Part shown: in pieces, positions 1 through 16,674 of the stretch
Numbering within the stretch: the stretch's first letter is position 1
Layout: each line of letters begins with the position of its first letter
Source of the DNA: a virus
Lineage: Duplodnaviria > Heunggongvirae > Uroviricota > Caudoviricetes
Virus record (IMG/VR): IMGVR_UViG_2778261169_000001
Coordinates: 1 to 16,674 of that record
Length of the DNA: 16,674 nucleotides
Strand: one strand, 5' to 3'
Notes under the pieces: generated by a model
Told to the model about the DNA's origin: nothing
Seen by the model: only the letters and a program-made list of their open reading frames with translations
Databases searched by the model: none
Position numbers and translations under genes: made by a program

Positions 1-1029
1 GCCGTCAACGATATAACCACTGGTTTTCAGCTCGCGGAATTTGGCATTGATACCGGAAACGATGTCGCGAATGAGGGTCGGGGTAATGGGTTTATCCATC
101 GCCCACGCGTGCGCCTCCGCCATCGTGTCGGCCAGTACCTGCGCGGTGCGGGTGTAGTTCTCAAACAGGAAAAGCGGATCATCCGAGCAGGTACGGTTTC
201 CCCAAAACTTGAAACCATCATTGCGGATAAGCGTGGTGACACCGGCCTGATTCAGCAGGTTGGCGTCGGTCGCCGGTTCCTGCAAATCCCACGATACTGA
301 GGCACTGACGCCGGTCACACCGTTAACGCCAACGTTAGACAGGGTTTTATGCCAGCCGACCGTCTGGTCGATTTTGGCACGCAGGCCGAGCGCGCGCGCC
401 GTCGCCCAGGCTGTCGCAGTCGCGTTCGCCGTGGTGTCCCATGCCAGAAAATCAGGGAAGATGACCATCAGCTCACGCTGGCTGAAATTCTCGCGGTAGT
501 CGATGGCCTCGGAAATGGTTTTACAGCCCCATGCGCTGACATAGCCAAAGGCGCGCAGGCTCTGACAGGTGGACGCGAGTGCGGTCGCCACCTCCTGTGA
601 ATCCAGCCCCGGCACGCCGAGAATCCGTGGCTTAACGCCGGTGACGGTTTTCGCCGTCAGCAGGGCTTTCAGCCCGGTATATTTGCCGTTTTCGTCGGTG
701 GTGCCGATGATATTAGAAATGGTCTGTTTGTGCGCCGCCTCGGGGTTCTCCGGATCTTCAATACCTTCGGCCACACGCACGGCCACGATGACCGGCTTGC
801 ACTGGTCAGCGATAGCCTGCAGGGACGCCGACAGCGAGCCCTGTTTACCGGCCTTACCGATAGCGCTCTGCACGTTCGTAATGAGCACCGGCTCATTGAG
901 GAGAAATGTTTTTTCGTCAGCATCGCTGGCCGTGCAGACCATGCCGATGATGGCCGTCGAAACGGTGGAAATGGTGCGCACGCCATCGTTAATCTCGATG
1001 ACCTGCACGCCGTGATGATAGTCACTCAT
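1..1029 (-). CDS. FI: Tail sheath protein (P2 gpFI-like), N-terminal 343 codons; gene continues past the window start
   Basis: Minus-strand frame is open from ATG at 1029-1027 to position 1. Translation begins MSDYHHGVQVIEINDGVRT and the last codons read LADTMAEAHAWAMDKPITPTLIRDIVSGINAKFRELKTSGYIVDG, both matching my recollection of P2 FI. GGAG lies 7 nt upstream of the ATG. Not in the ORF track because it runs off the window. Confidence 0.85.
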   Translation of the reverse strand, partial: MSDYHHGVQVIEINDGVRTISTVSTAIIGMVCTASDADEKTFLLNEPVLITNVQSAIGKAGKQGSLSASLQAIADQCKPVIVAVRVAEGIEDPENPEAAHKQTISNIIGTTDENGKYTGLKALLTAKTVTGVKPRILGVPGLDSQEVATALASTCQSLRAFGYVSAWGCKTISEAIDYRENFSQRELMVIFPDFLAWDTTANATATAWATARALGLRAKIDQTVGWHKTLSNVGVNGVTGVSASVSWDLQEPATDANLLNQAGVTTLIRNDGFKFWGNRTCSDDPLFLFENYTRTAQVLADTMAEAHAWAMDKPITPTLIRDIVSGINAKFRELKTSGYIVDG

Positions 1030-1121
1030 CCGTTTAACTCCGTGGTTAAGGGGTGAGTGATATTTTCTGTTGTGTGGCGGGTGCGGGCTATTTGTCAGGG
1101 TTGGCTAAGGTCTGACACAAC

Positions 1122-1154
1122 GACGGGAAAGGAAAAGGCGGGCAACTGCCCGCC
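1122..1154 (-). terminator. Candidate rho-independent terminator downstream of G (end of the H-G transcription unit)
   Basis: GGCGGGC (1137-1143), loop AACT, GCCCGCC (1148-1154) form a 7-bp GC stem. On the minus strand it is followed by TTTTCCTTTCCC and sits about 10 nt after the G stop codon (1167-1165). Confidence 0.5.
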
Positions 1155-1164
1155 AGATGTCGGA

Positions 1165-1743
1165 TCAGACTGGCAGCGGCGGCCATTCAATATCCGGAGC
1201 ATCCTCCGGCTGGATGCGGCTCAGTAAAACACGGTATTTTTTCCATGCAATGAGGTGCGTTTTTTCATCGTCGGTTGCCATCTCCAGATCAACGGAGTCC
1301 TGTAATGTCGCAACCGCAGTATTGGCCTGTTTAAGAAGCCTGTTTTTGTTGTTTTTCGCAGCCTCTGTCAATGCATTACGTGCAGCATCAGCATCATCAA
1401 CCCATGTTTTACCATCCCATTTCTGCCACGGGTTTTCCGGCACAACCGGTGTTGTTCCTGCCGGATACTGACCCGGCTCGGTTATCTCCCTCTCATGACC
1501 TGTTTCGGTGTCATAGACAACCTCACCCCGGTGGTCTTCAGTGATAGCCCAGCAACCATTTTCAGTGTCATAAACCGGAATAAATCCGTCTCGGGTTTCC
1601 GGGGGCTTTTCACTGGTGCAGCAGGCGGGCAATCCGGTAAATGCCGGTATCAGGGCGTCACCTTTTCCAATAAATTCACAGGTGTCTGCACGAAAGTTAT
1701 ACACAGTGATAGTCCGGCTTTCTCCGGTCATTTTAAACGTCAT
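1165..1743 (-). CDS. G: Tail fibre assembly chaperone (P2 gpG-like)
   Basis: 192-aa ORF immediately downstream of the tail fibre gene; its ATG (1743-1741) overlaps the H stop codon (1745-1743). Position and size fit P2 G; the C-terminal half resembles Tfa-type chaperones. Confidence 0.8.
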   Translation of the reverse strand: MTFKMTGESRTITVYNFRADTCEFIGKGDALIPAFTGLPACCTSEKPPETRDGFIPVYDTENGCWAITEDHRGEVVYDTETGHEREITEPGQYPAGTTPVVPENPWQKWDGKTWVDDADAARNALTEAAKNNKNRLLKQANTAVATLQDSVDLEMATDDEKTHLIAWKKYRVLLSRIQPEDAPDIEWPPLPV

Positions 1744-3428
1744 TATGCGAGTCTCACGATATAGTTAAATGCGATGTTTTTGATGGTGTTTTCTGCATTA
1801 CCCGACGCGGCGATCGTAATGGTGTGACCGTGTGCGCCAATAGCAACGGAGTGCGAGTGTGCGCCAATCCCGACATTATGATTGTGGGCACCAATCGCCA
1901 CGGTATGCGCGTGATTACCTGCAGTTGATGTTGTTTTCGTTCCCGTCGCTATTTCGTTACCGTCGGCGGCCTGTCCCCCGGCCTGATCTCCCCGGTGTAC
2001 GGTAAAAGTGTGCGCATGGTTGCCGGTTGCATTAGTGGTTTTTGTCCCGTAGTCAAAGGTCGTGGTGGTTTTCGTTCCGTGGTCAAAAGCACTGGTGGTT
2101 TTCGTCCCTAAATCGGTGCTCGATGCGCTGGCACCGTGGGCGTGCGATTTAATGCCGTCCTGCTCCTGAGACAAAATAGCGCGCCCACTTGCGGGTTTAC
2201 CTTTGATTGTCCAGCCCCGCATATCAGGAATAACACCCGATGGGTACACCACAGCAAGCAGCGGATACGCGGCTTTATCAAAAGTTTGTCCCTGCATGAC
2301 GGCATAGCCAGCAGGAACACTGTCAGACGGCCACGCAACGGGAGCGCCTACCGGAAAAACATCATCAGGCGTCCACGGTGTCCATGCGCCTGTTGAATAC
2401 TGACTGCGCGAGTAGCTCCGGGAGCTGTTATAAACCCGGTATACCTGAGTCACTCCGGCATTTTTATAAATGACCAGCGTCCCGGCGTTATTTTCAGGGT
2501 AATGTCTGGCGGCTGAGGTATTAGAATTCGCTGGCTGAAAGTAAATACCCGGCGTTTTAAGGGTGTCTAAATCCTCCGTTACCAGCCCAATAGCCTGGTC
2601 GTCGAAAATATCCTGCGAGGTAACACTGGTGTCAGCATTCAGGGAGTGTCCGTTAATTTTGCGCGAGGAAGGAACGCGGCCATCAGCATTATCATTCGCC
2701 GCTTTCACCGCTTTTGGCGTTGCGGCGAGCGTCTCAGACACGCTGTCGATGGCGCTACTGAGCTGAACAATCCCTTTCTGCGCCGTGGTCGCATCCTGAG
2801 CCGAGTATTTACCTTTCGCAAGGTCATACGCCGCCTTAACCGCTTTCGGTGTCGCGGCGAGCGCCTCAGACGTGCTGTCGGTCGCACTGCTTAACTGCGT
2901 GAACCCTTTTTCTTTCAGCGTGGCGTCAGGATGGCGGCGGGACTGCTCATGCTCTGCGAGTTTGTCGTCGACATAATCCTGCGTCGCCATCACCAGCGTG
3001 GTATCGATGGACAACTCGACCGTGTCGATATCACTCACCATGATCACCATACGCAGCGTCTGCGCACGACCTGATCCTTCCGCCAGCTCGGGTTTGTAGC
3101 TTTCGGCCATATTGCCGACCGCAATCAGCGTGCCGGTGTCATCGTAAAGCCCCATTTCACGCAGCCAGAAACCGCCGGTCTCCGGGGGGATCACCAGCTC
3201 CGCCACGACATAATTTTTATGTTTTTTGTCCTGGCTGATTTTGTTCAGGACATGACGCCAGACCTCATTGACGAGTTTTGTCTGGCTGGCGTCCGGTTCG
3301 GGCAGTTTTCCGCCGCCGTCCCCGACGGCCATCACAGCAAAATTGACTTTCTTCCCGTTCGGGAGCGTCGCCGCCGCCAGTTTTTCCGCACCGGCTCGGG
3401 TGATAACGGTTTTATATTTCACTGTCAT
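1743..3428 (-). CDS. H: Tail fibre protein (P2 gpH-like N-terminus, divergent repeat-rich C-terminus)
   Basis: 561-aa ORF. N-terminal ~200 aa ([27 protein letters not shown]..., [25 protein letters not shown]) and the duplicated LSSA[15 protein letters not shown] module match P2 H as I recall it. The C-terminus has a tail-collar-like segment ([38 protein letters not shown]...DMRGW) followed by GTKTT and GAH-x-H-x repeats. Confidence 0.9.
1826..1912 (-). repeat. Three imperfect tandem 27-bp repeats encoding (V/A)-(A/G)-IGAH-x-H-x units at the tail fibre C-terminus
   Basis: Plus-strand units gtgtgcgccaatagcaacggagtgcga / gtgtgcgccaatcccgacattatgatt / gtgggcaccaatcgccacggtatgcgc, translating on the minus strand to AIGAHNHNV / GIGAHSHSV / AIGAHGHTI. 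Coordinates approximate. Confidence 0.7.
2700..2915 (-). repeat. Two ~75-bp direct repeats (about 80% identical by eye, ~135-140 bp apart) inside the tail fibre gene
   Basis: caccgcttttggcgttgcggcgagcgtctcagacacgctgtcgatggcgctactgagctgaacaatccctttctg (from ~2706) versus aaccgctttcggtgtcgcggcgagcgcctcagacgtgctgtcggtcgcactgcttaactgcgtgaaccctttttc (from ~2838). They encode the duplicated [26 protein letters not shown] / [26 protein letters not shown] modules. Confidence 0.8.
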
Positions 3429-3439
3429 TGTGTTCTCAC

Positions 3440-3970
3440 TTATCCGGGGTAAACCGTGATGATGTCGCCGTCCCAGGTCAGGGCTCCGGTGAAGAGATAA
3501 CCCGGTATGTCCTGGATAATATTCAGGCCAATAAGATGGCGGCTGGCTGGCTTTGCATCGGCAATCAGCCTTTCCATTTCGTAATACATTTCCTCGGTGA
3601 TACCGGTCTCCAGCACGCCGATATCAAGGCGAAACGTGCCCGGGGGGTCGTTCGTCTCCCACCACTCCGTCACGTTAATCAGATACCCGAGCGGCTCGAC
3701 CACACGACGCACCGCACCTATCGTCCCTTTATGCGCATGGATAAACCACGTGCTGCGGATAACCTCGCGTTTGGTTTCTTCCGGCCAGCTCTCATCCCAG
3801 CGATCAACCGAAAACGCCCAGGCCAGCCACGGCAGCAGATTCGCGGGGCAGTTGTCAGGGTTCCATAGACGACGCAGCGGGACGGGCGTATTTTCGATAT
3901 CCGCGCAGGCGCGCGCCGCCGCCACCTCAAGCGGCGACGAGCCCACCGGCAGCAGACGGGTATCACTCAT
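3440..3970 (-). CDS. I: Baseplate protein (P2 gpI-like)
   Basis: 176-aa ORF, same length as P2 I, in the conserved V-W-J-I-H order; its start overlaps the J 3' end by 8 nt. Confidence 0.85.
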
Positions 3971-4871
3971 CGTTGCCCCCGATGTTTACGCTGTAAGCAG
4001 TGCAATATGACGCCTGTGTCTCATTGAGTACGATGTCAGCGACCGGCGCGACAAGTTCGACACGCTGCACCCCCTCGACGTAAAGCGCGGCATAGATGGC
4101 AGACTTGCGGATATCGCGCCCGAGCCGGTGCTGCGCGTTGATATAAGCCTGCAGCTTCGCTTTTGCCGCACTGAGCACCGGCTCGCTTTCGGGGCCGGGA
4201 TAAAGATAAAGCGCGGCATCGATGGTGTAGTCGACAATGACCGCCGACTGCACGGTCACGCGGTCAGCAACCGGCCTCACATCCTCATCGTTGAGAGCAT
4301 TACGCACCACGGCGAGCAGTTCCCCGGATGCCGCGCCGTTATTCTCCCGGGACAGTACCGACACGGTCACGCAGGCAGGCTGCGGGCTGATAACAGAAAT
4401 ATCGGCGACCCGCCCGTCAGCACTGCGGCCATGAAACTGATACGCACCGGTCGACCCGGCCACGCTCATTCCCTCAAAAGCCTGTTGAATTCGCAGACGG
4501 TAATCGGTGTCCGATTCCATGACGGCAGGCGTTGGCGGCAGCGTGGTCTCATCAGCAGGCGTAATAACGAGACGCTCAACATTGTAATTTGCGCCGAGGT
4601 TATCAAGGTCATGACCGGCAGCGTAAGCCAGCATCACCGCCCGTGCCGACTCATTCACCCGCTGACGCCAGATAATCTCCCGATAAGCATTTTCCTGCAA
4701 CAGCTTCACAATCGGCTCAGATTCAAGCGTCAGCGTACGCGCTACCGCGTCCTGTTGCTCTTCGGGATAGAGTGAGACGAGCGTCACCTTTCGCTCTGTC
4801 AGGATGGTTTCATAATCCAACTCTTCCACAACATCAGGTGCGGCGAGCTGGCTCAGGTCAACAATAGCCAT
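3963..4871 (-). CDS. J: Baseplate assembly protein J (P2 gpJ-like)
   Basis: 302-aa ORF, same size as P2 J; begins MAIVDLSQL and sits between W and I as in P2. Confidence 0.88.
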   Translation of the reverse strand: MAIVDLSQLAAPDVVEELDYETILTERKVTLVSLYPEEQQDAVARTLTLESEPIVKLLQENAYREIIWRQRVNESARAVMLAYAAGHDLDNLGANYNVERLVITPADETTLPPTPAVMESDTDYRLRIQQAFEGMSVAGSTGAYQFHGRSADGRVADISVISPQPACVTVSVLSRENNGAASGELLAVVRNALNDEDVRPVADRVTVQSAVIVDYTIDAALYLYPGPESEPVLSAAKAKLQAYINAQHRLGRDIRKSAIYAALYVEGVQRVELVAPVADIVLNETQASYCTAYSVNIGGNDE

Positions 4872-4876
4872 AACGT

Positions 4877-5227
4877 TTAACTCAGTGGAAGGGTGATAGA
4901 AAAAGGCTGGCCTGATGCCGAACGCGTGCCGGTCATATCGACGTACATCGCGCCGTCATCCTCTCCGCGTTCAACGGTGATGGTCGACAAACTGACGCGC
5001 GGTTCCCACCTCTGGATCGCGGAGTAGCACGCGGCCATAATCTGCAGACGCAGCGCCGGGGTCTGCGGCTGGTCAATCAGTGCAGACAACAGCGAGCCAT
5101 ATTCGCGGCGCATGACGCGCGAGCCCACTGGCGTGACCAGAATGTCGCGCACGCTTTGCCTGATGTGCTCAACTTCAGAAATACTGAGGCCGGTCTGGCT
5201 GTTCATTCCCAGATAACGCACCGTCAT
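4877..5227 (-). CDS. W: Baseplate protein W (P2 gpW-like, GPW/gp25 family)
   Basis: Start trimmed from the 171-aa track ORF to the internal ATG at 5227-5225 (MTVRYLGMNSQTGLSISEVEHIRQSVRDIL...), giving ~116 aa as for P2 W. This ATG overlaps the V stop codon (ATGA). Confidence 0.8.
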   Translation of the reverse strand: MTVRYLGMNSQTGLSISEVEHIRQSVRDILVTPVGSRVMRREYGSLLSALIDQPQTPALRLQIMAACYSAIQRWEPRVSLSTITVERGEDDGAMYVDMTGTRSASGQPFSITLPLS

Positions 5228-5865
5228 TTGACCCCCTTCGTCCAGTTTCCGCCCGGCTCCACGCCACCATGATCGTGGGCATCGACCTGCACGCCGTTTG
5301 AGGTAAATTTCCCTTCGGTGTGCTCGATGTTCCCCGACATCGTCCCGCCTTTTTTCACCTCGAGCGTGCCGGTGATGAGCTTGTTGGTACACACCACCTC
5401 GGGAGTATCGAGGGTAATGCGGGTTTCGGCTTTCACTAGCACCACCGGCACGATGGCGGTAATGGACTCCGACGCGGTAACGTCGGCGGTTTTAATACCG
5501 GATACGGTGAGCGCCCCGTTTTCGGGTTCGTACTCGATAACCGCCCCGTCAGGAAAAGTGACGTGAAACGCATCGGACGAGGCCGACGGCGCAGGATGGT
5601 CATCAGAGAAAATGCCGGGCAGCACAAAGGCTGTGTCCAGCTCGCCACCAATGGCAAGAATGAGCACCTGCTCGCCAACAGAAGGAGCCCACCACACCCG
5701 CGAGCGGCCGGCGCGGCAGGTCAGCCAGTTAAGCCAGGTGGTTTGCATCCCGCCGGTCTGTACACGACAAAGCCCCTCGACGGGGTCGACGTCGGTCACA
5801 ATGCCGGTGCGGATAAGGTTGCGGATCGCCCGAGCGATTTCCTGTAAAGAATTTAAATTATTCAT
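5224..5865 (-). CDS. V: Baseplate spike/assembly protein V (P2 gpV-like)
   Basis: Start set at ATG 5865-5863 (MNNLNSLQEIARAIRNLIRTGIVTDVD...), which aligns with the P2 V N-terminus and gives ~213 aa (P2 V is 211). The longer track ORF from 5964 would add 33 residues drawn from the AT-rich island. Confidence 0.85.
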   Translation of the reverse strand: MNNLNSLQEIARAIRNLIRTGIVTDVDPVEGLCRVQTGGMQTTWLNWLTCRAGRSRVWWAPSVGEQVLILAIGGELDTAFVLPGIFSDDHPAPSASSDAFHVTFPDGAVIEYEPENGALTVSGIKTADVTASESITAIVPVVLVKAETRITLDTPEVVCTNKLITGTLEVKKGGTMSGNIEHTEGKFTSNGVQVDAHDHGGVEPGGNWTKGVK

Positions 5866-6128
5866 GTGGAAAGGATGCCGACTGGAAAGGCTAGTGGCAA
5901 TCAAGTGGAGTTTTATGGGAGATGAAACAACAATTATCAGCTTTAAAATATCAGTATAATTCATCCCATTAGATTAATGAGAGCCACATAAAGGATTTAT
6001 CAAATAGCAAAACTTAGAAATGAAATAAATCTCATAGACATTTCATCATGATATAAAATTATTTTCCGAACCCTTACCAAAGCAGATATGGGGCTAAATT
6101 ATCAAACAGCCCCACGAATATTAAAACA

Positions 6129-6707
6129 TTATTTTCCACAAACCATATTATCTATCGCAGCCATATAGGATACAAACAGATCTACATAACCACTTACGTC
6201 AGTGAGACTAATATCATTTGCATTGTCGTTATGATGAATAATGTTATTTCTCTTTACAACCACTGCATTCACAACATCCTTATTCGCATTAAATTCCGCC
6301 GAATTCAAAAGATTAACACCCAAATAAGAAAATGCCTTAATCGTCTTGTAAGGATTACCAGACAGGCTATCCGACACCTCACTTTTCTCAACCTTTAAAT
6401 CAGCATCTATATATTTCAACTCCTTATCTTTAACATCTTTTTTGACTCGCCAAAGCAAAAAATTGTGTGGCAAGCAGGCTGCTTTGAGCCTGCGATTGAT
6501 GGTATCGCAGTGCCATGTTGCAACCTCAGTCAAATACGACTCTAAATAAGTGCAGAGTGTAATAAGATACGATTTAACAAAAAAATTAATGTTCTTATTG
6601 AAGAATTCATTTTCCTCAAGGATAGCCTGTTGCTCCGTCTCCTTAATAATTTCTTTTAAGGATAAAAATAATGAACGATATCCATCATAGTATTCAGTAT
6701 TTTCCAT
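6129..6707 (-). CDS. Hypothetical protein with C-terminal R-x4-H motif (possible HEPN-type RNase), second gene of the island pair
   Basis: 192 aa from ATG 6707-6705 (the track starts 3 nt upstream at a TTG). AAGGAAG lies 6 nt upstream; the start overlaps the upstream gene's 3' end by 14 nt. Motif VVKRNNIIHHND at residues 151-162 is encoded at ~6231-6251. AT-rich codon usage. Confidence 0.6.
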   Translation of the reverse strand: MENTEYYDGYRSLFLSLKEIIKETEQQAILEENEFFNKNINFFVKSYLITLCTYLESYLTEVATWHCDTINRRLKAACLPHNFLLWRVKKDVKDKELKYIDADLKVEKSEVSDSLSGNPYKTIKAFSYLGVNLLNSAEFNANKDVVNAVVVKRNNIIHHNDNANDISLTDVSGYVDLFVSYMAAIDNMVCGK

Positions 6708-7743
6708 CAATAACTTCCTTAAGAAGTGCCACCCAACTAGCCCTACGCTTCATCACCGAACTCTTATTCTGTAGCCCACCTGATAAAGTTTTTTTGAACT
6801 CAGCACTTGAACAAAGAGTAAACCAAGCATTCCGTATTTGTTCGGACTTTTCATTTACAATATCATCATTTAACTTGCCAATTGTAGGCATTAAAATGTC
6901 ATAATGAACTAACCCTTTACGTTTTCTCCTAACTGTAGGGTTTGTAAATACATCTTCACCAAATATTTTTTCACACTTAGATAATGATGTTTTGAATCTC
7001 TCCCTCATAATATTCAGTTCATCATCTTTTAAGTCTGAAAATTTTTCCATATGATCATCCAAGAATTCTTTCAAGGAGCTATCAAAGTAATCAAAAAAGT
7101 TATCTTCATAAAATGCAAAAAAACGCAAAACTTGTTCGTCTGGCTCACGACTATCTCTTTTTACTGTAGTTGTTTCCGCCAAACCAAAATTTTTAATGGC
7201 ATCAATATTACCTAACTCTTCTAATAATTCATCAAACCCTCCCGGATATAACGCATGTCTTATTTCTTGATCAGAAAGTTTAACTGCCCCCTGATTGAGT
7301 CTAGAAAATATCTCTCTTATTAATTTTTTGGGATTTTCTTTTCTTAGAACAATGCATCTTATTGTTGTCGACTCTAACTCTGAACGTAGAGATCCTAATT
7401 CAGAAAACTTTTTCCCTTCAAGCTCTTTAAATGTAGTCATTCCCTCCAAAGCGAACTCGTCATCAAAAAATTTCTGTATTGTGGTTAATCGCTGAACACC
7501 ATCAATTACAATATGATTGCCGCTATCATCTTCTGCAAAGTAACAAGATGGAAGAGGAATACGCATTAAACAAGATTCAATGAATTTTGAAGATCGCAGC
7601 CATCCGTCCTGATCCCATTTGTACTTTCTTTGAAAGTCTGGATTCAGTTTTAGTTTGATGGGATTGGACTTCATCCTAGAACATAAAGTCTCAAATGGAT
7701 AATCTATGGGGAATAAATTCAATGTTTTATCATCGTTAGACAT
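6694..7743 (-). CDS. DUF262 (ParB-like/GmrSD N-terminal domain) protein, no recognisable nuclease domain
   Basis: 349 aa; ATG 7743-7741 with AAGGA 7 nt upstream. DUF262 hallmarks: NPDFQRKYKW (aa 35-44), IVIDGVQRLTT (DGQQR-type motif, aa 78-88, DNA ~7489-7503) and IFSRLNQGAVKLSDQEIRHALY (F-x-R-x-N...G...L...E, aa 145-166). The C-terminal ~170 aa is helical with no HNH/DUF1524-like His-Me motif that I can see. Confidence 0.75.
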   Translation of the reverse strand: MSNDDKTLNLFPIDYPFETLCSRMKSNPIKLKLNPDFQRKYKWDQDGWLRSSKFIESCLMRIPLPSCYFAEDDSGNHIVIDGVQRLTTIQKFFDDEFALEGMTTFKELEGKKFSELGSLRSELESTTIRCIVLRKENPKKLIREIFSRLNQGAVKLSDQEIRHALYPGGFDELLEELGNIDAIKNFGLAETTTVKRDSREPDEQVLRFFAFYEDNFFDYFDSSLKEFLDDHMEKFSDLKDDELNIMRERFKTSLSKCEKIFGEDVFTNPTVRRKRKGLVHYDILMPTIGKLNDDIVNEKSEQIRNAWFTLCSSAEFKKTLSGGLQNKSSVMKRRASWVALLKEVIDGKY

Positions 7744-7800
7744 GCTTCAATCCTTGTAAGTAAAAGCTTAAAAAATCAACGAGGTAGCAGACAACAACAA

Positions 7801-7829
7801 TATTTACCATTTTTTATGATTAAGGTCAA
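7801..7829 (-). promoter_or_regulatory. Candidate sigma70 promoter for the island genes
   Basis: On the minus strand: TTGACC (7829-7824), 17-nt spacer, TGgTAAATA extended -10 (7809-7801). Lies in the 135-bp S-to-island intergenic region, about 55 nt upstream of the DUF262 ATG. Confidence 0.3.
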
Positions 7830-7878
7830 AAGGTCGGTAAGCTAGGATTCGTCTTATGAGACTTGCAACCGTAAATAG

Positions 7879-8325
7879 TCAATTTAGATGTTCAATAACC
7901 AATTTTTCAATCAACAAATTGTCTCCAAAGTCAACACCAAGCAACTGCCGTTCTGGGTATTGCACGTCCTGAGCATGTGGGTTTGGCCGGTCTTTAAGTC
8001 CGAGCTGATGAATCTGAGCAATACGTTGCACCTTGCCGGTAAACTCGACCACCGCTGCATCATCGCGGCCTCTGGCTTTCATGTAGCGGTTCGTTCGCAA
8101 CTTCTGAAACATCGTCCGCTTAATACGCCCTTTCTTCGCTCTGAGCGGCTGGCGTTTTCGCGCCTGATACGGCGTGCCATCAGGCGCTTTTTGCTGTTTG
8201 ATGCGTTGCTGTTGCGATCTGCGCAGTTGCTTTGCTATTTCAGCGGCCAGCTTACGCCGACCCGCCGGTGATATTGCCGCAATCAACCCCGCAAGTTTGT
8301 CATCAAAAGGCTTAAATTCATTCAT
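7879..8325 (-). CDS. S: Tail completion protein S (P2 gpS-like)
   Basis: 148-aa ORF (P2 S is 150 aa) directly downstream of R with an 8-nt overlap; ATG at 8325-8323; basic N-terminal half typical of gpS. Confidence 0.85.
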   Translation of the reverse strand: MNEFKPFDDKLAGLIAAISPAGRRKLAAEIAKQLRRSQQQRIKQQKAPDGTPYQARKRQPLRAKKGRIKRTMFQKLRTNRYMKARGRDDAAVVEFTGKVQRIAQIHQLGLKDRPNPHAQDVQYPERQLLGVDFGDNLLIEKLVIEHLN

Positions 8326-8785
8326 CCCACTTACTCACCAGCTCGCCATTGATATACAGCTCAGTCGGTCGCGTGACAGGCTCAGGTAATGGCGGTTCAG
8401 GCGCATAGCTGACGTGTAACGCGCCGTTTTCATCTCTGACGAGGGTGCGCTCGGTGAGTTGCAGGCTGATACTGATATCCACATTATCACCGTCGTTTAA
8501 ATCCATCTGGAATCGATAGCCCTTTTTGCGCCCCTCATCCAGCGTGCAGATATCCGGCTGGTTCTCACGCAGCCACACCGCCACCGGCACGAAAATCAGG
8601 TCAGGGTCGCCCACAAAATCGCAGACAATCACATTCAGGGTGTAATTCTTTTCATGAGACAGCGAGTCTGCGAGACGCGCATCGATATTCCCCTCATCGG
8701 CAAAGATGCGCATCATCTCGGGGTTATTCAGGATCTGAGGGACGGCGTCATTCAGCGCTTTGCGCAGGCTTTTCATTTTCTGCAT
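8318..8785 (-). CDS. R: Tail completion protein R (P2 gpR-like)
   Basis: Start trimmed to ATG 8785-8783 (MQKMKSLRKALNDAVPQILNNPEMMRIF...), giving ~155 aa as for P2 R; the ATG at 8776 is an alternative. C-terminus ...EPVTRPTELYINGELVSKWDE matches my recollection of P2 R. Confidence 0.8.
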   Translation of the reverse strand: MQKMKSLRKALNDAVPQILNNPEMMRIFADEGNIDARLADSLSHEKNYTLNVIVCDFVGDPDLIFVPVAVWLRENQPDICTLDEGRKKGYRFQMDLNDGDNVDISISLQLTERTLVRDENGALHVSYAPEPPLPEPVTRPTELYINGELVSKWDE

Positions 8786-9038
8786 CGATTTTATCCTGAC
8801 AGTCTTTGATGGTTTCGACCTTAATTGCACAGGCGGTGAGCGCGTGCTCAAGCCTCCGAATATCGGCACTCAGATCACCGTTATTGACGGGGTCGCTTCC
8901 CGGCATCGGGCAGAGACTCACCTTCGGGCAGGCGTTGTAAACAACGGGCGGCGGAGGCGCAGCCCGTTCGGATGTGCAACCGACGCACAGCATCAGGCAG
9001 CTTATCGCTGTACCAGCGGCGTAACGTCTCGTTTTCAT
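8748..9038 (-). CDS. lysC: Outer-membrane spanin lipoprotein (Rz1/LysC-like o-spanin)
   Basis: 96-aa ORF in a different frame, overlapping the 3' part of Rz and the 5' end of R. N-terminus MKTRRYAAGTAISCLMLCVGC has a signal peptide and lipobox-like CVGC; followed by Pro-rich APPPPVVYNACPKVSLCPMPGSDP. Confidence 0.75.
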   Translation of the reverse strand: MKTRRYAAGTAISCLMLCVGCTSERAAPPPPVVYNACPKVSLCPMPGSDPVNNGDLSADIRRLEHALTACAIKVETIKDCQDKIDAENEKPAQSAE

Positions 9039-9306
9039 TCATCAACCTCGTTATGGTTTCTTCCCGCTTTACCGCCTGCTCACCGGCAACGGCCAGCTCA
9101 TCACCGAGCCTGACCTGCGCATCCTCATTCGCACTTGCGATTCGCTGCGATACGGCAAGCTGATTTTTCAGCATGCCAATCGTCGTCTTTTGCTCGCTGG
9201 CAACGCGGCTCGCTTTCTCAAAAGACCGGGATAAGTTCACGTTATCGTGGCGCAGCCACAGCACCATGGCGAGCAACCCTGCCAGCAGAATCATCAGCAC
9301 TTTCAT
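8881..9306 (-). CDS. lysB: Inner-membrane spanin (Rz/LysB-like i-spanin)
   Basis: 141 aa; N-terminal transmembrane segment MKVLMILLAGLLAMVLWL followed by a charged, coiled-coil-like periplasmic region. Its ATG overlaps the endolysin stop (ATGA) and it contains the Rz1 frame. Confidence 0.8.
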   Translation of the reverse strand: MKVLMILLAGLLAMVLWLRHDNVNLSRSFEKASRVASEQKTTIGMLKNQLAVSQRIASANEDAQVRLGDELAVAGEQAVKREETITRLMNENETLRRWYSDKLPDAVRRLHIRTGCASAARCLQRLPEGESLPDAGKRPRQ

Positions 9307-9812
9307 TGCATCCCCTTTACGCAGTAAGCCCGCTCCCGCGCACGGCGGTTCTCCAGCCCTTTATTTTTTGTGCCGTTGACATACACCCAGCGGGTGAGCT
9401 GGTCGCATGCCTGCCACCACTGGTGACGCTTGATATAAGAGACCAGAGTCGACCGACAGGCCGCACCGGTTCCGACGTTAAACGCAAAACTGACCAGCGA
9501 GTTATAGACGCGCGGTGGCATATCCACCGGCACACAGACCGCGAGCCGTTGCTCGACGTTGAGCACATCGGCAATGAGATTCTCCGCCGCGCGCTGTTCG
9601 GTAATATCCCCTTTCGGGACCACCCCGGCAGTGTGGCCGATGCCCGACGTCCACACTCCCGCGCTGCACTGGTAAGGTGTCAGGCGACATCCTTCGAGGT
9701 CGGCAATCAGTGCCAGCCCCTCGGGCGAGGTGTTAAGCAGACGAAAATCAGGCACCAGTGCCGCCAGCGCCAGCACGGCGGCCACACTGCAGCGTTTAAT
9801 GATTGAGCTCAC
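9303..9812 (-). CDS. SAR endolysin, T4-lysozyme-like (GH24) fold, phage 21 R21 / P1 Lyz type
   Basis: Recalled similarity to phage 21 R: FNVGTGAACRSTL, ACDQLTRWVYVNG and RRARERAYC blocks. The N-terminus has a hydrophobic Ala/Leu-rich SAR segment (SVAAVLALAALV). Start uncertain: I prefer GTG 9812-9810 (AGGGGG 6 nt upstream); the track uses TTG at 9836. Confidence 0.85.
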   Translation of the reverse strand: MSSIIKRCSVAAVLALAALVPDFRLLNTSPEGLALIADLEGCRLTPYQCSAGVWTSGIGHTAGVVPKGDITEQRAAENLIADVLNVEQRLAVCVPVDMPPRVYNSLVSFAFNVGTGAACRSTLVSYIKRHQWWQACDQLTRWVYVNGTKNKGLENRRARERAYCVKGMQ

Positions 9813-10017
9813 GGGCAGCCCCCTTATCGGGTCCAAGTGAGGTCAGGTAGCGGTAGGTTTTACGCTTAAACCAGTAATTCGTCAGCGCGGTAAAAATGGC
9901 GCAGGCACTCCCCACATAGAGCGCCAGCTTTTCGGGGGACATAGCCCCGAAATACGCCAGCCCCACGGCCAGCCAGTAAGCGAAAAACGTCGTGATTTTT
10001 TCCACACTCAGTCCCAT
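9796..10017 (-). CDS. Holin, class II / pinholin-like (two predicted TMDs)
   Basis: 73 aa with two hydrophobic segments (ITTFFAYWLAVGLAYFGAM and LALYVGSACAIFTALTNYWF) and a basic C-terminal tail; directly upstream of and overlapping the SAR endolysin; ATG at 10017-10015. Confidence 0.7.
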   Translation of the reverse strand: MGLSVEKITTFFAYWLAVGLAYFGAMSPEKLALYVGSACAIFTALTNYWFKRKTYRYLTSLGPDKGAARELNH

Positions 10018-10211
10018 AAATTCACCGTTTCAGTTTTCGGGGCGCTGTCGGTTTCGGGCAGTTCTATTGTCGTGCCGTGCGGCAGAATAACGCCCAGCTC
10101 CGACAGCCCCGGATTCGCCCACAGCACCGTTTCAACGACGCCCTCAGTGCGCCCGTAATACCGGGCGCAAATCGCATCGAGGGTGTCACCCTGCATCGCC
10201 CGGACCTTCAT
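10008..10211 (-). CDS. X: LysM-domain tail protein X (P2 gpX-like)
   Basis: Start trimmed to ATG 10211 (MKVRAMQGDTLDAICARYYG..., ~67 aa as in P2 X), which overlaps the L stop codon. The sequence reads as a LysM-like motif. Confidence 0.8.
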   Translation of the reverse strand: MKVRAMQGDTLDAICARYYGRTEGVVETVLWANPGLSELGVILPHGTTIELPETDSAPKTETVNLWD

Positions 10212-10717
10212 CAGATTTGACCGACAATACAGCGCGGCTTGTCCTGAATACGCGCCACAGACCAGCGCATATCCCGCCACAGTTCATCGATAACCGCCTC
10301 AGTGCTTTCCGCTTTACGGTCGCCTTTCGCCGTCGCATCGATGCCGCGATAACGCTCAAACAGCGTGGCGCTGGTCATGGCGCAGACGGCGCGGAAATAG
10401 TGAAAACAGCGCACGCTTTCGCCATCGATATCATCGGCAGGCACATCAGCCAGCGTGTCATGCCCTGCGGCCATCTGCTCAACCCGCCACAGAGCAAGCT
10501 CCGCATTGGTTTCAGCCATACCGGCTTTAATCGCATCATTCAGGCGCAGCGCGGAAACGGTCTGCTCCAGACGCATCAGCTCACGCACACGCTTCGGATC
10601 CACATCAGGAAAAAAGAAGGTGTTTTTTATTACAGGTTCACTCACGCCCGGTGGCGGAATGACCACGCCCGGCACGTCCTGCGGCTCTTTTTTTGGCTCA
10701 ATAATCACTGTCGTCAT
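10211..10717 (-). CDS. L: Head completion/stabilisation protein L (P2 gpL-like)
   Basis: 168 aa (P2 L is 169), ATG at 10717-10715, located between M and X as in P2. Confidence 0.85.
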   Translation of the reverse strand: MTTVIIEPKKEPQDVPGVVIPPPGVSEPVIKNTFFFPDVDPKRVRELMRLEQTVSALRLNDAIKAGMAETNAELALWRVEQMAAGHDTLADVPADDIDGESVRCFHYFRAVCAMTSATLFERYRGIDATAKGDRKAESTEAVIDELWRDMRWSVARIQDKPRCIVGQI

Positions 10718-10816
10718 GACAACCTCGGGTAATGGGTGGGCGGTGGACGCCGGTCGCAGTCAGGGCAATCAATGCCCGCATTGACCGGCGTGCCGCCCGG
10801 CTCGGGGAGCGCTCTG

Positions 10817-11572
10817 TTAACCTGCGGCTTTTGCCGCTTTCGGGGGACGCCCGCGCCGTGCCGCCGGTTTAGCGGCAGGTTTGCGCGTGCGCGGTTTATT
10901 CTGTTTGGGTGCAGGTTCTGCTTTGGGTTTCAGCGCGCGCTCGAGCTGTTCAATATCCTTTTTCACACCGATAGCCCGCTCTAACTGGATCGCACGCTGC
11001 AGGTGCGTCAGCGCGTCAGTCAGACGGCCAGCCTCACGCAGCACGTAGCCGGTAATTTTGTGCAGCTTCGCGCGCACGATATCCGGCATGTCTGCCCGTT
11101 CGGTCAGTGCGATGGTGTCGAGCAGGAGCGGCAGCCCGACAGGCTGTTTCGCATCGAGCAGGCGCTGCGCTGACAGGGCGACCTCTTCGGCCAGCAAATA
11201 CGGCGTGGTGCGCCGGTGGCCGCCGGTCGGCATGGTCAGGCCATAGGTCATCGCATAGCGGGCAATCTCCAGCGCACCGGCGATGTCATCCGCATCGAGA
11301 CGCCACAGCATGACGGTCATGACAATGTCATCCTGCGCCCCTTTACCGGAGCTGAGAACGCCACCCACCCACGGCAGATAAAACGGCAACAGCTCGCGCT
11401 TTTTGTCTGCCTTGCGCTCGTTGGAGCGGATTTGTTTTAACGTGCGACAGTCTGCGGCCAGCTTGACGAGCATCTGCTCATAGGCAGTTGCATTACGCAG
11501 CGGAGCAGCAGCCCGCCGCGCAGTTTCAGAGGCCGAGACCCGCATCATGTGACGCGCTGCGGGACTCGTCAT
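10817..11572 (-). CDS. M: Terminase small (endonuclease) subunit M (P2 gpM-like)
   Basis: 251 aa; N-terminus MTSPAARHMMRVSA...PLRNATAYEQMLVKLAAD and the basic C-terminal tail match my recollection of P2 M. Confidence 0.88.
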   Translation of the reverse strand: MTSPAARHMMRVSASETARRAAAPLRNATAYEQMLVKLAADCRTLKQIRSNERKADKKRELLPFYLPWVGGVLSSGKGAQDDIVMTVMLWRLDADDIAGALEIARYAMTYGLTMPTGGHRRTTPYLLAEEVALSAQRLLDAKQPVGLPLLLDTIALTERADMPDIVRAKLHKITGYVLREAGRLTDALTHLQRAIQLERAIGVKKDIEQLERALKPKAEPAPKQNKPRTRKPAAKPAARRGRPPKAAKAAG

Positions 11573-11575
11573 GGC

Positions 11576-12643
11576 TTACTCTCCGCTTTCCGGTGCGGCA
11601 GGTGCGGTGAAGTCACCTAAATTGATGTTCTCAATCAGGCAACCGGCCGCGTAAGCCTCGATCACATAGTCAATATTCATTGACTCGTAGTTTTCGATAC
11701 GGTCTTTTTTCGGCTCTTCAATGATGGCGCGGCGGTGTGCGTCATCCATGAAGTAAATCGACAGGTTATCGAGACGCGTCACCATCAGGGCATTCGCCGG
11801 GAAGTACGGCACACGCACGGCGGGGAGGTTGCCGATCCGCTTCTGGCTGATGATGATGTCAGCGGCCAGCGTTTCGCTGTTTTCCTGCGTCTTGTTGACC
11901 AGCGGGAAATATTTATCCGCCATCAGCTTACGGCCAGTGATAACGACGAGCTCCGGGTCATCCTGATAAATCTCATCAATCAGGTTGGTGGTCGCATCCA
12001 TGACCAGCGCATCGAGGTTTTCATAGTCACCATTTTTACCCACGCGGATCACATCGGAAATAACCTTGCCGTCTTCGTCGGTGATTTTTGACATCACGCG
12101 CGCTGCAGCTTCATTGCGGTACTTCTGCAGCCAGCCCACCGCCACATCCTGCAGCATCGGATTGTTTTTACGGCTGGAGGTCGCCGCACGGGTGATACCG
12201 TTGAAACCGGCCATAATGAAATCGAGCGACTGGCGCTTGATAATCGCGTCACGGATACGGGTCTGAAAGTCCTGGAATCGCGCCCACAGGTCGAGCTGTT
12301 TGTAACGGATGTGGAAATCGAAGTTGATTTGCGCGCATTCGTATTTGTTGGATTCGAGCGCGGTAAAATCAGCGGTCTTACGTTCATCATCAGCGGCAGT
12401 ATCGGTGGTGCTGGCAATCGTACCGTTGACGCCCACCCCGACTTTTTCGCCTTTCAGCTCGTCGACCGGCACGATATTCACTTTGGTCAGAAACGCGGAT
12501 GACGCCTGCAGAGTGGTCATCAGGGTTTGCGTCACGGACGGCTCGACGGTGAATTTCTTTGCCACATCGTCGGTGTCGACGCCGTTCAGTTCCGCCACGC
12601 GGGACAGGTAAGCATTAAATTTAAAGCGGGTATCTTTACGCAT
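11576..12643 (-). CDS. N: Major capsid protein N (P2 gpN-like)
   Basis: Start trimmed to ATG 12643-12641 (MRKDTRFKFNAYLSRVAELNG...), preceded by AGGA and matching the P2 N N-terminus. The track's longer ORF from 12673 has no RBS. Confidence 0.9.
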   Translation of the reverse strand: MRKDTRFKFNAYLSRVAELNGVDTDDVAKKFTVEPSVTQTLMTTLQASSAFLTKVNIVPVDELKGEKVGVGVNGTIASTTDTAADDERKTADFTALESNKYECAQINFDFHIRYKQLDLWARFQDFQTRIRDAIIKRQSLDFIMAGFNGITRAATSSRKNNPMLQDVAVGWLQKYRNEAAARVMSKITDEDGKVISDVIRVGKNGDYENLDALVMDATTNLIDEIYQDDPELVVITGRKLMADKYFPLVNKTQENSETLAADIIISQKRIGNLPAVRVPYFPANALMVTRLDNLSIYFMDDAHRRAIIEEPKKDRIENYESMNIDYVIEAYAAGCLIENINLGDFTAPAAPESGE

Positions 12644-12703
12644 TGTTATTCCTGTTTCTCTAAAAAGGGGCATCAGGCCGGGTGACGCGCACCCGGCGGG
12701 TTA

Positions 12704-13558
12704 TCAGCAGTTGGTCAGCAGCTCGTCGCCCATTCCGCCTTTCGACTTCTCGCGGCGCGGCTGGCGATGGCTTTCGGTGTTATCGAGGGAACTTTTCAGC
12801 GTGGTAAACGCCTGCGCGTTTTCTTCGGTCTGGCGGGTCACATCCTGCTTAAACTGCGCAAATGCGGTTTCGAGTTCGGTTAAACGTTTTTCGCTATTGC
12901 TCAGGCTGGTCTGCACCTGCTCAGTGACTGTAGTGACCGCCTCATGCACATCTGCCAGACGCCCGTCATCGCTCGCCTGCTTGCGGCTGAAAATGGCTTT
13001 GACCTTGTCGGTCAGGCTGTTGAGGACAGTATCGGGGACGTCCTCGAATTCCAGCTCAGCCAGCGTGGCAACGGAAAACAGGTCGTCAGGGTGAGCTTTT
13101 TTACCGGCCAACGGGTTCTGGGTCGCACGGCTGCAGAATTCGAGGTATTCGGTGCCGAGGCTTGCCGGGTCATCGGTCACCGCCAGGCCAACGAGATAAC
13201 ATTTGCCGCTGTTGGCGAAGTTAGGGCGGATCTCCATCGAGGTGTAAACTTTCTGACCGCTGCGCACCATGCTGACCAGTTCGTCCAGCGGTGCGATTTT
13301 GCCAAACAGCGCCTTTTTGCCATTCAGGGCAGAGTCATCGCTGATGATTTCCGCTTTCACTTCGGTCACGTCGCCATAACGTTTGAGCACACTGTCGGGC
13401 AGAATGCCGCGCAGGTGTTCGAGGTTGATGCGGCAACCGTAGACGCGCGGGTCGAAGGAATCCGCCATTTCCTGAATGTCATCACCGCTGATGACACGGC
13501 CATCGCAGGTGTCACCCTCGACGCCGATGCGAAACCATTTAGAAACTTTCTTTGCCAT
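12704..13558 (-). CDS. O: Capsid scaffolding protein O (P2 gpO-like)
   Basis: 284 aa; MAKKVSKWFRIGVEGDTCDGRVISGDDIQEMADSFDPRVYGCRINLEHLRG closely matches the P2 O N-terminus as I recall it. Confidence 0.9.
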   Translation of the reverse strand: MAKKVSKWFRIGVEGDTCDGRVISGDDIQEMADSFDPRVYGCRINLEHLRGILPDSVLKRYGDVTEVKAEIISDDSALNGKKALFGKIAPLDELVSMVRSGQKVYTSMEIRPNFANSGKCYLVGLAVTDDPASLGTEYLEFCSRATQNPLAGKKAHPDDLFSVATLAELEFEDVPDTVLNSLTDKVKAIFSRKQASDDGRLADVHEAVTTVTEQVQTSLSNSEKRLTELETAFAQFKQDVTRQTEENAQAFTTLKSSLDNTESHRQPRREKSKGGMGDELLTNC

Positions 13559-13724
13559 TGTTCAGGTGTCCTGATATTGGGTTTTCGGTTCGGGGGTAGT
13601 TTCCCGACTCCGCCCCGCATCAGCCACCGCTTGCGGAAGTGCAACCCCTGACACAACAGGGGGTTAGCGATAATGCCCGGCTATTTCCTTAGCCTTGCCC
13701 CGTATTCACCAGTACGAGGCAACC
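13559..13724. promoter_or_regulatory. Divergent intergenic region between O and P (expected site of the P2-type divergent late promoters)
   Basis: 166-bp gap between divergently transcribed O and P; contains an inverted repeat AACCCCTG-N6-CAGGGG (13643-13662). No perfect TGT-N12-ACA activator-site dyad found. Confidence 0.4.
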
Positions 13725-15494: not shown

Positions 15495-15495
15495 G

Positions 15496-16503
15496 ATGAA
15501 AAAACGACAGAAGAAACCCGCCAACATGACCGCCAGCACACCGCAAAAAATGGAGGCGTTCACCTTTGGTGTGCCTTCCCCGGTTCTGGATCGCCGCGAC
15601 ATTCTCGACTACGTAGAGTGTATCAATAACGGGAAATGGTACGAGCCGCCGGTCAACTTCTCGGGGCTGGCAAAAAGCCTGCGCGCCTCCGTTCATCACA
15701 GCTCGCCGATTTACGTGAAACGTAACATTCTGGCGAGCACCTACATTCCGCACCCGTTGCTGTCACGTCAGGACTTCAGCCGCCTGGTGCTCGATTATCT
15801 GGTCTTTGCCAACGGCTATCTTGAGAAGCGCATGAGCGTCACCGGCCAGCTCTTAAAACTGGAAACCTCACCGGCTAAATACACCCGCCGGGGTGTCGAA
15901 GATGGCGTTTACTGGTACGTGTCGAACTACACCCAGCCGCACCCGTTCGCACCCGATTCCGTTTTCCATCTGCTTGAGCCCGATATCAATCAGGAGTTGT
16001 ACGGGATGCCGGAATACCTGAGCGCACTTAATTCTGCCTGGCTGAATGAGTCCGCTACGCTGTTTCGCCGCAAGTATTACCAGAACGGCGCGCACGCGGG
16101 GTACATCATGTACGTCACCGACGCCGCGCAAAGCAGTACCGACGTCGAGTCGCTCCGCAACGCGATGCGTGACTCGAAAGGACTCGGGAATTTCAAAAAC
16201 TTGTTTTTCTACGCGCCCAACGGCAAACCGGATGGCATCAAGATTGTGCCGTTGAGTGAAGTCGCCACGAAAGATGATTTTTTCAATATCAAAAAGGTTA
16301 GTGCAGAAGATTTGTTGAGTGCTCATAGGGTACCACCACAAATGATGGGAATTATGCCTAACAATGTTGGCGGTTTTGGTGATGTTGTAAAAGCTGCACA
16401 AGTGTTTGTCCGAAATGAGTTAACTCCTTTACAGGAACGGTTCAAAGAACTAAACAACTGGTTAGAAATGGAAGTTATAAGATTTAAAAAATATTCACTT
16501 TGA
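15496..16503 (+). CDS. Q: Portal protein Q (P2 gpQ-like)
   Basis: 335 aa (P2 Q is 344), immediately downstream of P on the same strand, the P2 arrangement. The last ~80 codons are markedly AT-rich. Confidence 0.88.
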   Translation: MKKRQKKPANMTASTPQKMEAFTFGVPSPVLDRRDILDYVECINNGKWYEPPVNFSGLAKSLRASVHHSSPIYVKRNILASTYIPHPLLSRQDFSRLVLDYLVFANGYLEKRMSVTGQLLKLETSPAKYTRRGVEDGVYWYVSNYTQPHPFAPDSVFHLLEPDINQELYGMPEYLSALNSAWLNESATLFRRKYYQNGAHAGYIMYVTDAAQSSTDVESLRNAMRDSKGLGNFKNLFFYAPNGKPDGIKIVPLSEVATKDDFFNIKKVSAEDLLSAHRVPPQMMGIMPNNVGGFGDVVKAAQVFVRNELTPLQERFKELNNWLEMEVIRFKKYSL

Positions 16504-16570
16504 TTTTCAAAATAAACATCTCAACATTATATTCAGCCCTGTAACTCAAGAACCACAGATAAATAAATAT

Positions 16571-16595
16571 CCTCCGGCATAGCCGGAGGTTTTTC
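16571..16595 (+). terminator. Rho-independent terminator downstream of Q
   Basis: Perfect hairpin CCTCCGGC-ATA-GCCGGAGG (16571-16589) followed by TTTTT (16590-16594), about 68 nt after the Q stop. Confidence 0.75.
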
Positions 16596-16674
16596 AAATG
16601 CGCCTATAAGGCTCTCTTACCAGCCGCGCCCTAACAGGCGCACACGATCTGACATTTGCATCCAACTTCGTTAC

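Follow-up and report, generated by a model that had tools for sequence, protein, structure and literature searches.

What does the AT-rich DNA between the tail gene S and the baseplate gene V of a P2-like prophage encode, and would it protect the host against other phages? The question is raised by a stretch of 16,674 nucleotides (nt) of caudoviricete DNA (positions 1 to 16,674 of IMG/VR record IMGVR_UViG_2778261169_000001, hereafter the window). The window is the late region of an Escherichia coli P2-like prophage, and a segment with a guanine-plus-cytosine (GC) content of 34% sits in it between genes S and V. An initial annotation, made from the sequence alone, had described this segment as an AT-rich island of about 2 kb with two coupled genes in the same orientation, encoding a DUF262 protein and a putative HEPN protein. 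The segment is probably a horizontally acquired, self-contained two-gene anti-phage cassette of the DUF262 plus RiboL-PSP-HEPN kind, in which the first protein (A) would be the sensor and the second (B) a ribonuclease (RNase) effector. A role in defence or superinfection exclusion is the best-supported reading of the locus.

Two coupled genes for a DUF262 and a HEPN protein

The segment and its two genes, with protein lengths in amino acids (aa), are as follows.

5933-7936, no strand: exchanged low-GC cargo segment of about 2.0 kb, GC 0.34, delimited by homology breaks against four related E. coli prophages and by composition
6694-7743, minus strand: gene A, a 349-aa stand-alone DUF262 protein (ParB-like nucleoside triphosphatase, NTPase) with a helical C-terminal domain; proposed sensor
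6129-6707, minus strand: gene B, a 192-aa HEPN protein of the RiboL-PSP family; proposed RNase effector

Both genes have the orientation of the late genes. The GC content of 0.34 across the segment stands against about 0.58 on the V-W-J side and about 0.52 on the S-R side, so the AT-rich composition and the two co-oriented genes were as first described. The two protein lengths, the DGVQR motif at residues 81-85, residues R153 and H158 and the flanking genes S and V had likewise been given correctly, and the DUF262 and HEPN domain calls are borne out by Pfam and by the invariance of the motifs.

Protein A has a single Pfam match, to PF03235 (GmrSD_N/DUF262, 4.1e-23). The three DUF262 motifs, as defined in PMC12065111, are invariant in an alignment of 35 A sequences, namely QRxxxW (Q38, R39 and W43), DGxQR (D81, G82, V83, Q84 and R85) and FxxxN (F146 and N150). 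The C-terminal part, residues ~170-345, is a confidently predicted helical domain with a predicted local distance difference test score (pLDDT) of 85-95. Its position matches that of the 'ParBDB' domain that has been proposed for NsnA of the Menshen system.

Protein B matches PF18735 (HEPN_RiboL-PSP, 9.8e-18). Counted from the ATG it is 192 aa long, and the first 14 nt of its gene overlap the end of A. The stretch KRNNIIHHND, which holds R153-x4-H158, is invariant in the 35-sequence family alignment. The structure model of B is confident (pLDDT 91.9), and its closest structural matches are HEPN (HepT-type) toxins of HEPN-MNT pairs (5yep_B, 7ae2_A, 8xdj_A). Neither A nor B has a match in NCBIfam, and a sequence-profile search of the PDB found no solved relative of either family. 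RefSeq product names already reflect the two domains ('DUF262 domain-containing protein' for A and 'HEPN domain-containing protein' for B).

The statement in the initial annotation that such a pair is not a named system has to be withdrawn. An operon link was noted as early as 2013, when Anantharaman et al. recorded 'Ribo L-PSP-HEPN ... operon with ParB' (PMC3710099), and Vassallo et al. 2022 give 'DUF262, HEPN' as the description of PD-T4-2 from E. coli ECOR65 (PMC9519451). In ECOR65, PD-T4-2 spans positions 338141-339964 of contig QOYX01000002 and includes the protein RCO39066.1. HHpred assigned its A component to PF03235 at 99.7% and its B component to PF18735 HEPN_RiboL-PSP at 97.8% (PMC9519451), and a review lists both DUF262 and PF18735 under PD-T4-2 (PMC10952713). 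PD-T4-2 acts against T4: it protects when a plasmid carries it under its native promoter, and its deletion in ECOR65 restores T4 plaquing (PMC9519451). The architecture is therefore already known, named and validated, and the clade of the window is a separate, strongly conserved one.

In the mechanism proposed here, A would join a ParB-like NTPase (DUF262) to a helical domain that may bind DNA, and would sense invading phage DNA or its replication state. B would be the effector, a HEPN ribonuclease with the canonical R-x4-H site that is kept inactive until A switches it on. Activated B would cut RNA, translation would stop and the superinfecting phage would be blocked, whether by abortive infection or by direct immunity. 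These roles are proposed by analogy with the DUF262 modules of GmrSD and SspE, with the sensor proposal for NsnA and with HEPN RNases such as DARNA. In GmrSD and SspE, nucleotide-dependent sensing of phage DNA by DUF262 activates a nuclease, and DARNA is a HEPN defence RNase that is switched on by a phage nucleic-acid cue and then cuts tRNA (bioRxiv 10.64898/2026.02.22.705581).

Identity with GmrSD, BrxU or SspE themselves was rejected, as these are type IV restriction-like DUF262-DUF1524 systems and Pfam finds no DUF1524 match, nor is there an HNH nuclease, in A or B. The window effector is instead a separate HEPN protein, and the expected target would for this reason be RNA rather than DNA. 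A type IV-like activity could still be imagined in which A recognises modified phage DNA, with hydroxymethyl or glucosyl-hydroxymethyl cytosine, DNA is the final target and the HEPN protein serves as an accessory or as a nuclease directed at DNA. In GmrSD, BrxU and SspE, DUF262 is the NTPase module that senses modification (PMC10952713; PMC12065111), and BrxU, SspE and a DndI-type DUF262 protein are the weak structural matches of A; moreover, PD-T4-2 was selected on T4, whose DNA carries glucosylated hydroxymethylcytosine (PMC9519451). However, the missing DUF1524/HNH domain, together with the HEPN ribonuclease fold and R-x4-H site of B and the fact that characterised HEPN enzymes cut RNA, makes this explanation improbable. 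Sensing of modified DNA as the trigger would fit an RNA-cutting cassette too, and only the DNA target is a competing claim.

Pairing, spread and conservation of the two families

The pair is widespread, with 2136 word-indexed homologues of A that are 349-350 aa long. A is about 65% identical in Pseudomonas, Halomonas, Aeromonas, Burkholderia, Stenotrophomonas and Geoalkalibacter. A species-level scan, in which each species was represented by one genome and B was sought with a hidden Markov model, gave 80 A loci (L017-L096) at 50-69% identity. Their proteobacterial part covers Gamma-, Beta- and Alphaproteobacteria, and the others belong to Desulfobacterota, Cyanobacteria, Bacteroidota, Verrucomicrobiota, Planctomycetota, Nitrospira, Chloroflexota, Cloacimonadota and a Methanococcoides assembly. 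The archaeal copy, from Methanococcoides seepicolus (L096), lies on a contig that may be genuine or a contaminant.

A full-length B lies directly downstream of A on the same strand at 72 of the 80 loci. At the remaining eight, B is partial (four loci), the contig lacks room for it (three) or it is absent and A itself is truncated (one). The A-then-B pairing is obligate, and the coupling of the two genes in the initial annotation is upheld both by this arrangement and by the overlap of their frames. Sequence identity to the window copy rises and falls together for A and B (Spearman 0.91, n = 38). Within 3 kb of the pair, the 80 loci have no conserved third gene, and no other flanking family occurs at more than six of them.

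The genomic contexts of the pair vary and include P2-like phages, integrase islands and places where toxin-antitoxin or McrBC-like genes are neighbours. Two P2-like contigs from metagenomes, whose backbones have diverged (S 77% and V 87% identical), carry the pair at the same S-V junction (A 94%, B 89%). Other Peduoviridae hold distant DUF262 plus HEPN pairs at other hotspots, with A-type proteins about 30% identical to window A. In phage P2_4B2 such a pair (gp44/gp43, L010 140-2015) adjoins a replication gene, and in Klebsiella phage ST16-OXA48phi5.4 (gp38/gp39, L011 2887-4790) it sits between tail genes; the HEPN partners in these two pairs belong to the MAE_28990 or RiboL-PSP families and have no PADLOC match.

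The B family is small and sharply bounded, with 152 representatives at E<=1e-3 among 1.84 billion, and a tblastn search of B against phage genomes gave no match. In one P. aeruginosa assembly (L002 7034-7621) the gene caller had missed B and called a short open reading frame on the opposite strand, where tblastn shows B. Surveys that rely on annotation may for this reason under-count the pair.

Within E. coli, the island is present in 30 of 5426 complete genomes, every copy being at least 99% identical, and neither near nor distant nucleotide searches of E. coli genomes found diverged copies. Carriers include NDM-named and ESBL-named (extended-spectrum beta-lactamase) human isolates. Nearly all copies keep the two frames intact and identical. 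In strain 5CRE51 (L106 1794-2800), ISKpn26 lies at the 5' end of A (about window 7720-7745), where it removes the first codons and cuts off the upstream region and leaves B intact.

The few carriers and their near-identity would suit a single recent acquisition that is spreading with few lineages, and the segment might then be a recently transferred, AT-rich passenger that is silenced, for example by H-NS, and neutral, with no current function in E. coli. A GC content of only 34% and the presence of insertion sequence (IS) elements in or beside the cassette in three strains fit such a passenger. Its frames, however, are intact and near-identical and retain all catalytic motifs, and the A/B family is under strong purifying selection over very large distances, which makes a functionless segment very unlikely.

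The main rival to a defence role is a toxin-antitoxin or addiction module. B would be a constitutively toxic RNase, and A would act as its antitoxin through binding or nucleotide-dependent modification; the pair would mainly stabilise the prophage or island, and phage defence would be a side effect of antitoxin loss. The overlap of A and B and their constant company are in keeping with such a module, as are the HEPN-MNT toxins that are structurally nearest to B and the Geoalkalibacter pair, which sits among toxin-antitoxin genes. In addition, ParB/sulfiredoxin-fold proteins are capable of nucleotide-dependent chemistry (PMC12065111). A, however, is not an MNT nucleotidyltransferase and is much larger than the usual antitoxin, and its three NTPase motifs and second helical domain, all of them invariant, suit a sensor better than a plug. 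Strain 5CRE51 is viable with a disrupted A start and an intact B, a weak argument as A may still be expressed, and the validated relative PD-T4-2 was recovered as a phage-defence system. We consider the toxin-antitoxin explanation unlikely.

The conservation of A also admits a more specific proposal. The clade could be a distinct minimal sensor-effector system of very wide spread, in which the ParB-like nucleotide switch A directly licenses the HEPN RNase B with no ATPase transducer between them; we regard this as a tentative possibility. Given its unusual conservation, A would then not follow a fast-evolving phage protein but read an invariant cue, for example a nucleotide, a modification or a DNA structure.

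Relation to PD-T4-2, Menshen and other systems

The PADLOC profile check gave an answer for A and none for B. The best match of A is NsnA of Menshen (6.6e-80, 267.2 bits, 333 of 385 profile positions), followed by PD-T4-2_A (9.5e-43, 144.6 bits, profile positions 45-354 of 363); its matches to HEC-06, Orf5 and REase_II are no better than marginal (~1e-3) and confined to the DUF262 N-terminus. The window pair resembles PD-T4-2 in being a two-gene operon in E. coli accessory DNA, with a stand-alone DUF262 protein (PF03235, ~345 aa) first, a small RiboL-PSP HEPN protein (PF18735) second and no DUF1524. Window A spans nearly the full PD-T4-2_A profile, and window B has the features of the second PD-T4-2 component, a PF18735 HEPN domain with an R-x4-6-H site. 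It differs in that window B fails the PD-T4-2_B profile, window A scores higher with NsnA than with PD-T4-2_A, and PD-T4-2B is shorter, at ~165-170 aa from its open reading frame span and HHpred ranges, than the 192-aa window B. The comparison was made through PADLOC profiles and described domains. On these grounds the pair appears to fall within the PD-T4-2 kind by architecture and outside the strict PD-T4-2 sequence family as defined by the PADLOC profiles.

Menshen (NsnABC; Millman 2022; Li et al. 2025, PMC12065111) is the other system that A recalls. Window A is NsnA-like, a ParB-DUF262 protein with QRxxxW, DGxQR and FxxxN followed by a helical C-terminal domain, and the sensor role proposed for NsnA is the one proposed for window A. 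Unlike in Menshen, the partner is a HEPN protein, with no NsnB ATPase and no NsnC (an inactive PIN plus a nuclease or toxin domain). Identity with Menshen was rejected, as the gene after A encodes the 192-aa HEPN protein and the cargo holds no ATPase and no third gene.

The same prophage carries a second cargo at the replication-endonuclease/portal hotspot, just past the portal gene (window 16200-16674, GC 0.38; L105 12088-14759). It comprises a gene for a 518-aa AAA_15/DUF3696 ATPase and then one for a 370-aa protein that has no Pfam match. The best PADLOC match of the ATPase is NsnB (5.2e-55, C-terminal half), with further matches to PDC-M55A, HEC-03B and, over the full length, PARIS AriA. 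The 370-aa partner has a weak PDC-M55B match, and only the last ~76 nt of its gene lie inside the window.

A split, Menshen-like arrangement is thus conceivable, in which the NsnA-like A works with the NsnB-like ATPase and the 370-aa partner at this other hotspot ~9.5 kb away, as the best PADLOC matches of A and of the DUF3696/AAA_15 ATPase are NsnA and NsnB, respectively. It is the least likely of the explanations. The lack of a conserved third gene near the pair across 80 species implies that the pair needs no ATPase, and the NsnB match covers the C-terminal half of the ATPase only, whereas the PARIS AriA profile matches end to end. The two loci also occupy independent cargo hotspots, whereas Menshen genes are adjacent in the described systems (PMC12065111). 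That one prophage holds both an NsnA-like protein and an NsnB-like ATPase is probably a coincidence.

Two further identities were rejected. The pair is not a HEPN-MNT toxin-antitoxin system, as the partner of B is a DUF262 protein with no nucleotidyltransferase match. HEPN-MNT pairs and single-protein HEPN defences (DARNA/PD-T7-3, ApeA and AbiD/F) share the HEPN fold and R-x4-H site with window B, but in the window the sensing module is a separate DUF262 polypeptide and not an MNT protein or a fused C-terminal domain. A virion structural role was rejected as well, as there is no match to a structural family and the cassette is also found outside phages.

Boundaries, expression and the S/V junction

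The cargo is embedded in an otherwise P2-like late region. RefSeq gives the gene order in an identical E. coli copy as tail fibre, I, J, W, V, cargo, S, R, lysis genes, X, L, M, N, O, P and Q, and the identities of S, R, V, W and J are backed by PHROGs. The backbone features that adjoin the cargo are the following.

7879-8325, minus strand: phage gene S (tail completion), from phrog_26 (1.8e-46) and RefSeq annotation
5224-5865, minus strand: phage gene V (baseplate assembly or spike), which opens the next late operon, from phrog_6142 (5.5e-36), phrog_11 and RefSeq annotation
5905-5932, minus strand: conserved backbone element TGTTGTTTCATCTCCCATAAAACTCCAC adjoining the left cargo boundary, from a five-prophage alignment and the position of the pV activator-binding site of P2

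Four related E. coli P2-like prophages, which are 84-92% identical to the window in the cargo flanks, lose homology at 5932/5933 and regain it at 7937. The low-GC island had been placed between S and V at 5866-7878; its position between the two genes holds, and comparison with these relatives moves the limits of exchange to about 5933-7936. The left breakpoint lies 67 nt upstream of the V start codon, exactly at TGTTGTTTCA..., and the 67-nt V leader/promoter is therefore outside the exchanged segment. In the five-prophage alignment, conservation runs from the TGTTGTTTCATCTCCCATAAAACTCCAC boundary to the V start codon. The P2 record annotates the pV activator-binding site 42-69 nt upstream of V, with aTGTTGT as its first letters, and TGTTGTTTCATCTCCCATAAAACTCCAC is a candidate for the corresponding site in the window, the likeness to P2 consisting in its position and the shared TGTTGT start. 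An exact TGT-N12-ACA late-promoter dyad has no match upstream of V in the window.

The right breakpoint lies inside S, whose last ~19 codons (7879-7936) belong to the exchanged low-GC segment. The S proteins of the relatives are 77-88% identical to window S overall and diverge after residue ~130. These terminal codons differ in DNA and protein between prophages with different cargo, which suggests that each cargo brings its own S C-terminus. The cargo sits between two late operons, after the end of the first (...R-S) and before the pV promoter of the second. No flanking direct repeats and no att-like or IS-like ends were found bounding it, so homologous recombination in the conserved flanks would be the simpler account of the exchange. 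In strains 2024CK-00535 and 148, IS903B (L104 984-1952) has inserted between B and V, in the pV promoter/leader (about window 5900-5930); A and B are intact in this copy, and the V-W-J-I-H-G tail operon is probably crippled.

The S-V junction holds non-homologous DNA between S and the pV promoter in a late region that is otherwise syntenic, as is expected of a cargo site, and the four relatives carry four different cargoes there. Three of these encode proteins of 398 aa (L013 2358-3554), 328 aa (L014 6074-7060) and 543 aa (L015 6042-7673), for which PADLOC gave no match and Pfam none above the family cut-off; they are candidates for prophage-borne functions. The fourth, in the E. coli GPT24-02 prophage (L012 2474-3187), is a 237-aa Tin homologue on the opposite strand (PADLOC Tin, 2.1e-88). 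Tin is a known anti-T-even gene of P2, where it lies at the other end of the genome, in the TO region. At the S-V junction P2 itself has orf30, an opposite-strand gene that its annotation calls nonessential. P2-like phages have three regions with horizontally acquired genes, namely the orf30 site, the TO region and Z/fun (PMC3091744; PMC6823313). The cargo site of the window is identical to that of orf30, between S and the pV activator site, but orf30 is a single opposite-strand gene with no PADLOC match, whereas the window cargo consists of two genes in the orientation of the late genes. Composition, breakpoints, the P2 record and the literature thus support what the initial annotation asserted on the foreign origin and on the S/V (orf30) cargo site.

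Two elements beside the genes bear on how the cassette may be expressed.

7801-7829, minus strand: candidate promoter-like element upstream of A, with TTGACC, a 17-nt spacer and TGgTAAATA (extended -10), read from sequence
6088-6115, minus strand: candidate terminator, a hairpin 14 nt past the B stop codon with a 9-bp stem and a 10-nt loop, from RNA fold and conservation

No part of the upstream region is better conserved than the TTGACC-17 nt-TGgTAAATA element across the window, a diverged P2-like phage from a metagenome (L099) and a Pantoea island that is not part of a phage (L008/L009). The hairpin folds at -17.3 kcal/mol with a z score of -1.65, which is not significant by itself, and its U-tail is weak. 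It is conserved in L099, and the Pantoea copy is altered on both arms (GGGGCT/AGCCCC to GGGCCA/TGGCCC). The promoter-like block and the hairpin, with its compensatory changes, thus accompany the cassette into the non-phage Pantoea island, and both count as candidates on account of this conservation in different contexts. The cassette is probably equipped with a promoter and a terminator of its own, in which case expression in the lysogen would be expected. No terminator-like site was found between S and A, so read-through from the late operon during lytic growth may occur as well.

Several points weigh against a defence function or against the mechanism proposed for it. The function of the window clade is argued from shared architecture; PD-T4-2 is the system tested by experiment, and the window clade is likened to it on that basis. 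The cassette does not appear to be a close relative of PD-T4-2, because B fails the PD-T4-2_B profile and A prefers NsnA. B has no PADLOC match of any kind, even at E<=1, and the same search was blank for three B orthologues, for the HEPN partners of the two other Peduoviridae pairs and for eight outlying representatives of the B family. No published mechanism was found in the literature searched for PD-T4-2, nor for Menshen, and consequently GmrSD, SspE and the Menshen proposals are the source of the sensor-to-effector logic. The DUF262 half of the A model is of mediocre quality (pLDDT 50-65), and the structural matches of A are weak. At 50-69% identity across phyla, A is unusually conserved for a defence sensor. 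Consensus scans for sigma-70 promoters and for terminators gave nothing above chance and called neither the promoter-like block nor the hairpin.

If the cassette protects its host, the S/V (orf30) junction would join the P2 hotspots that hold defence genes. Two such hotspots were described by Vassallo et al. 2022, the replication-endonuclease/portal site, also described by Rousset et al. 2022, and Z/fun (PMC9519451). The presence of a Tin homologue at the same junction in a related prophage is a further reason to view S/V as a defence hotspot. The locus would not be called by the PADLOC v2 profiles, as A is assigned to NsnA with no NsnB or NsnC and B to nothing. A protective cassette would also flag a large cross-phylum DUF262 plus HEPN clade that defence inventories based on PADLOC v2 under-count, and its presence in NDM- and ESBL-named carriers could matter for phage-therapy host range. 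The extreme conservation of the clade, its very wide phylogenetic spread and this likely under-counting lift the locus above a routine case. PDB profile searches detected no solved structure for PD-T4-2 or Menshen, and for the study of stand-alone DUF262 sensors and their working, a DUF262-to-HEPN system of two proteins offers a compact way in. If the clade is a distinct minimal system, it would offer a simple model of how DUF262 turns DNA sensing into effector activation, in Menshen and PD-T4-2 as well.

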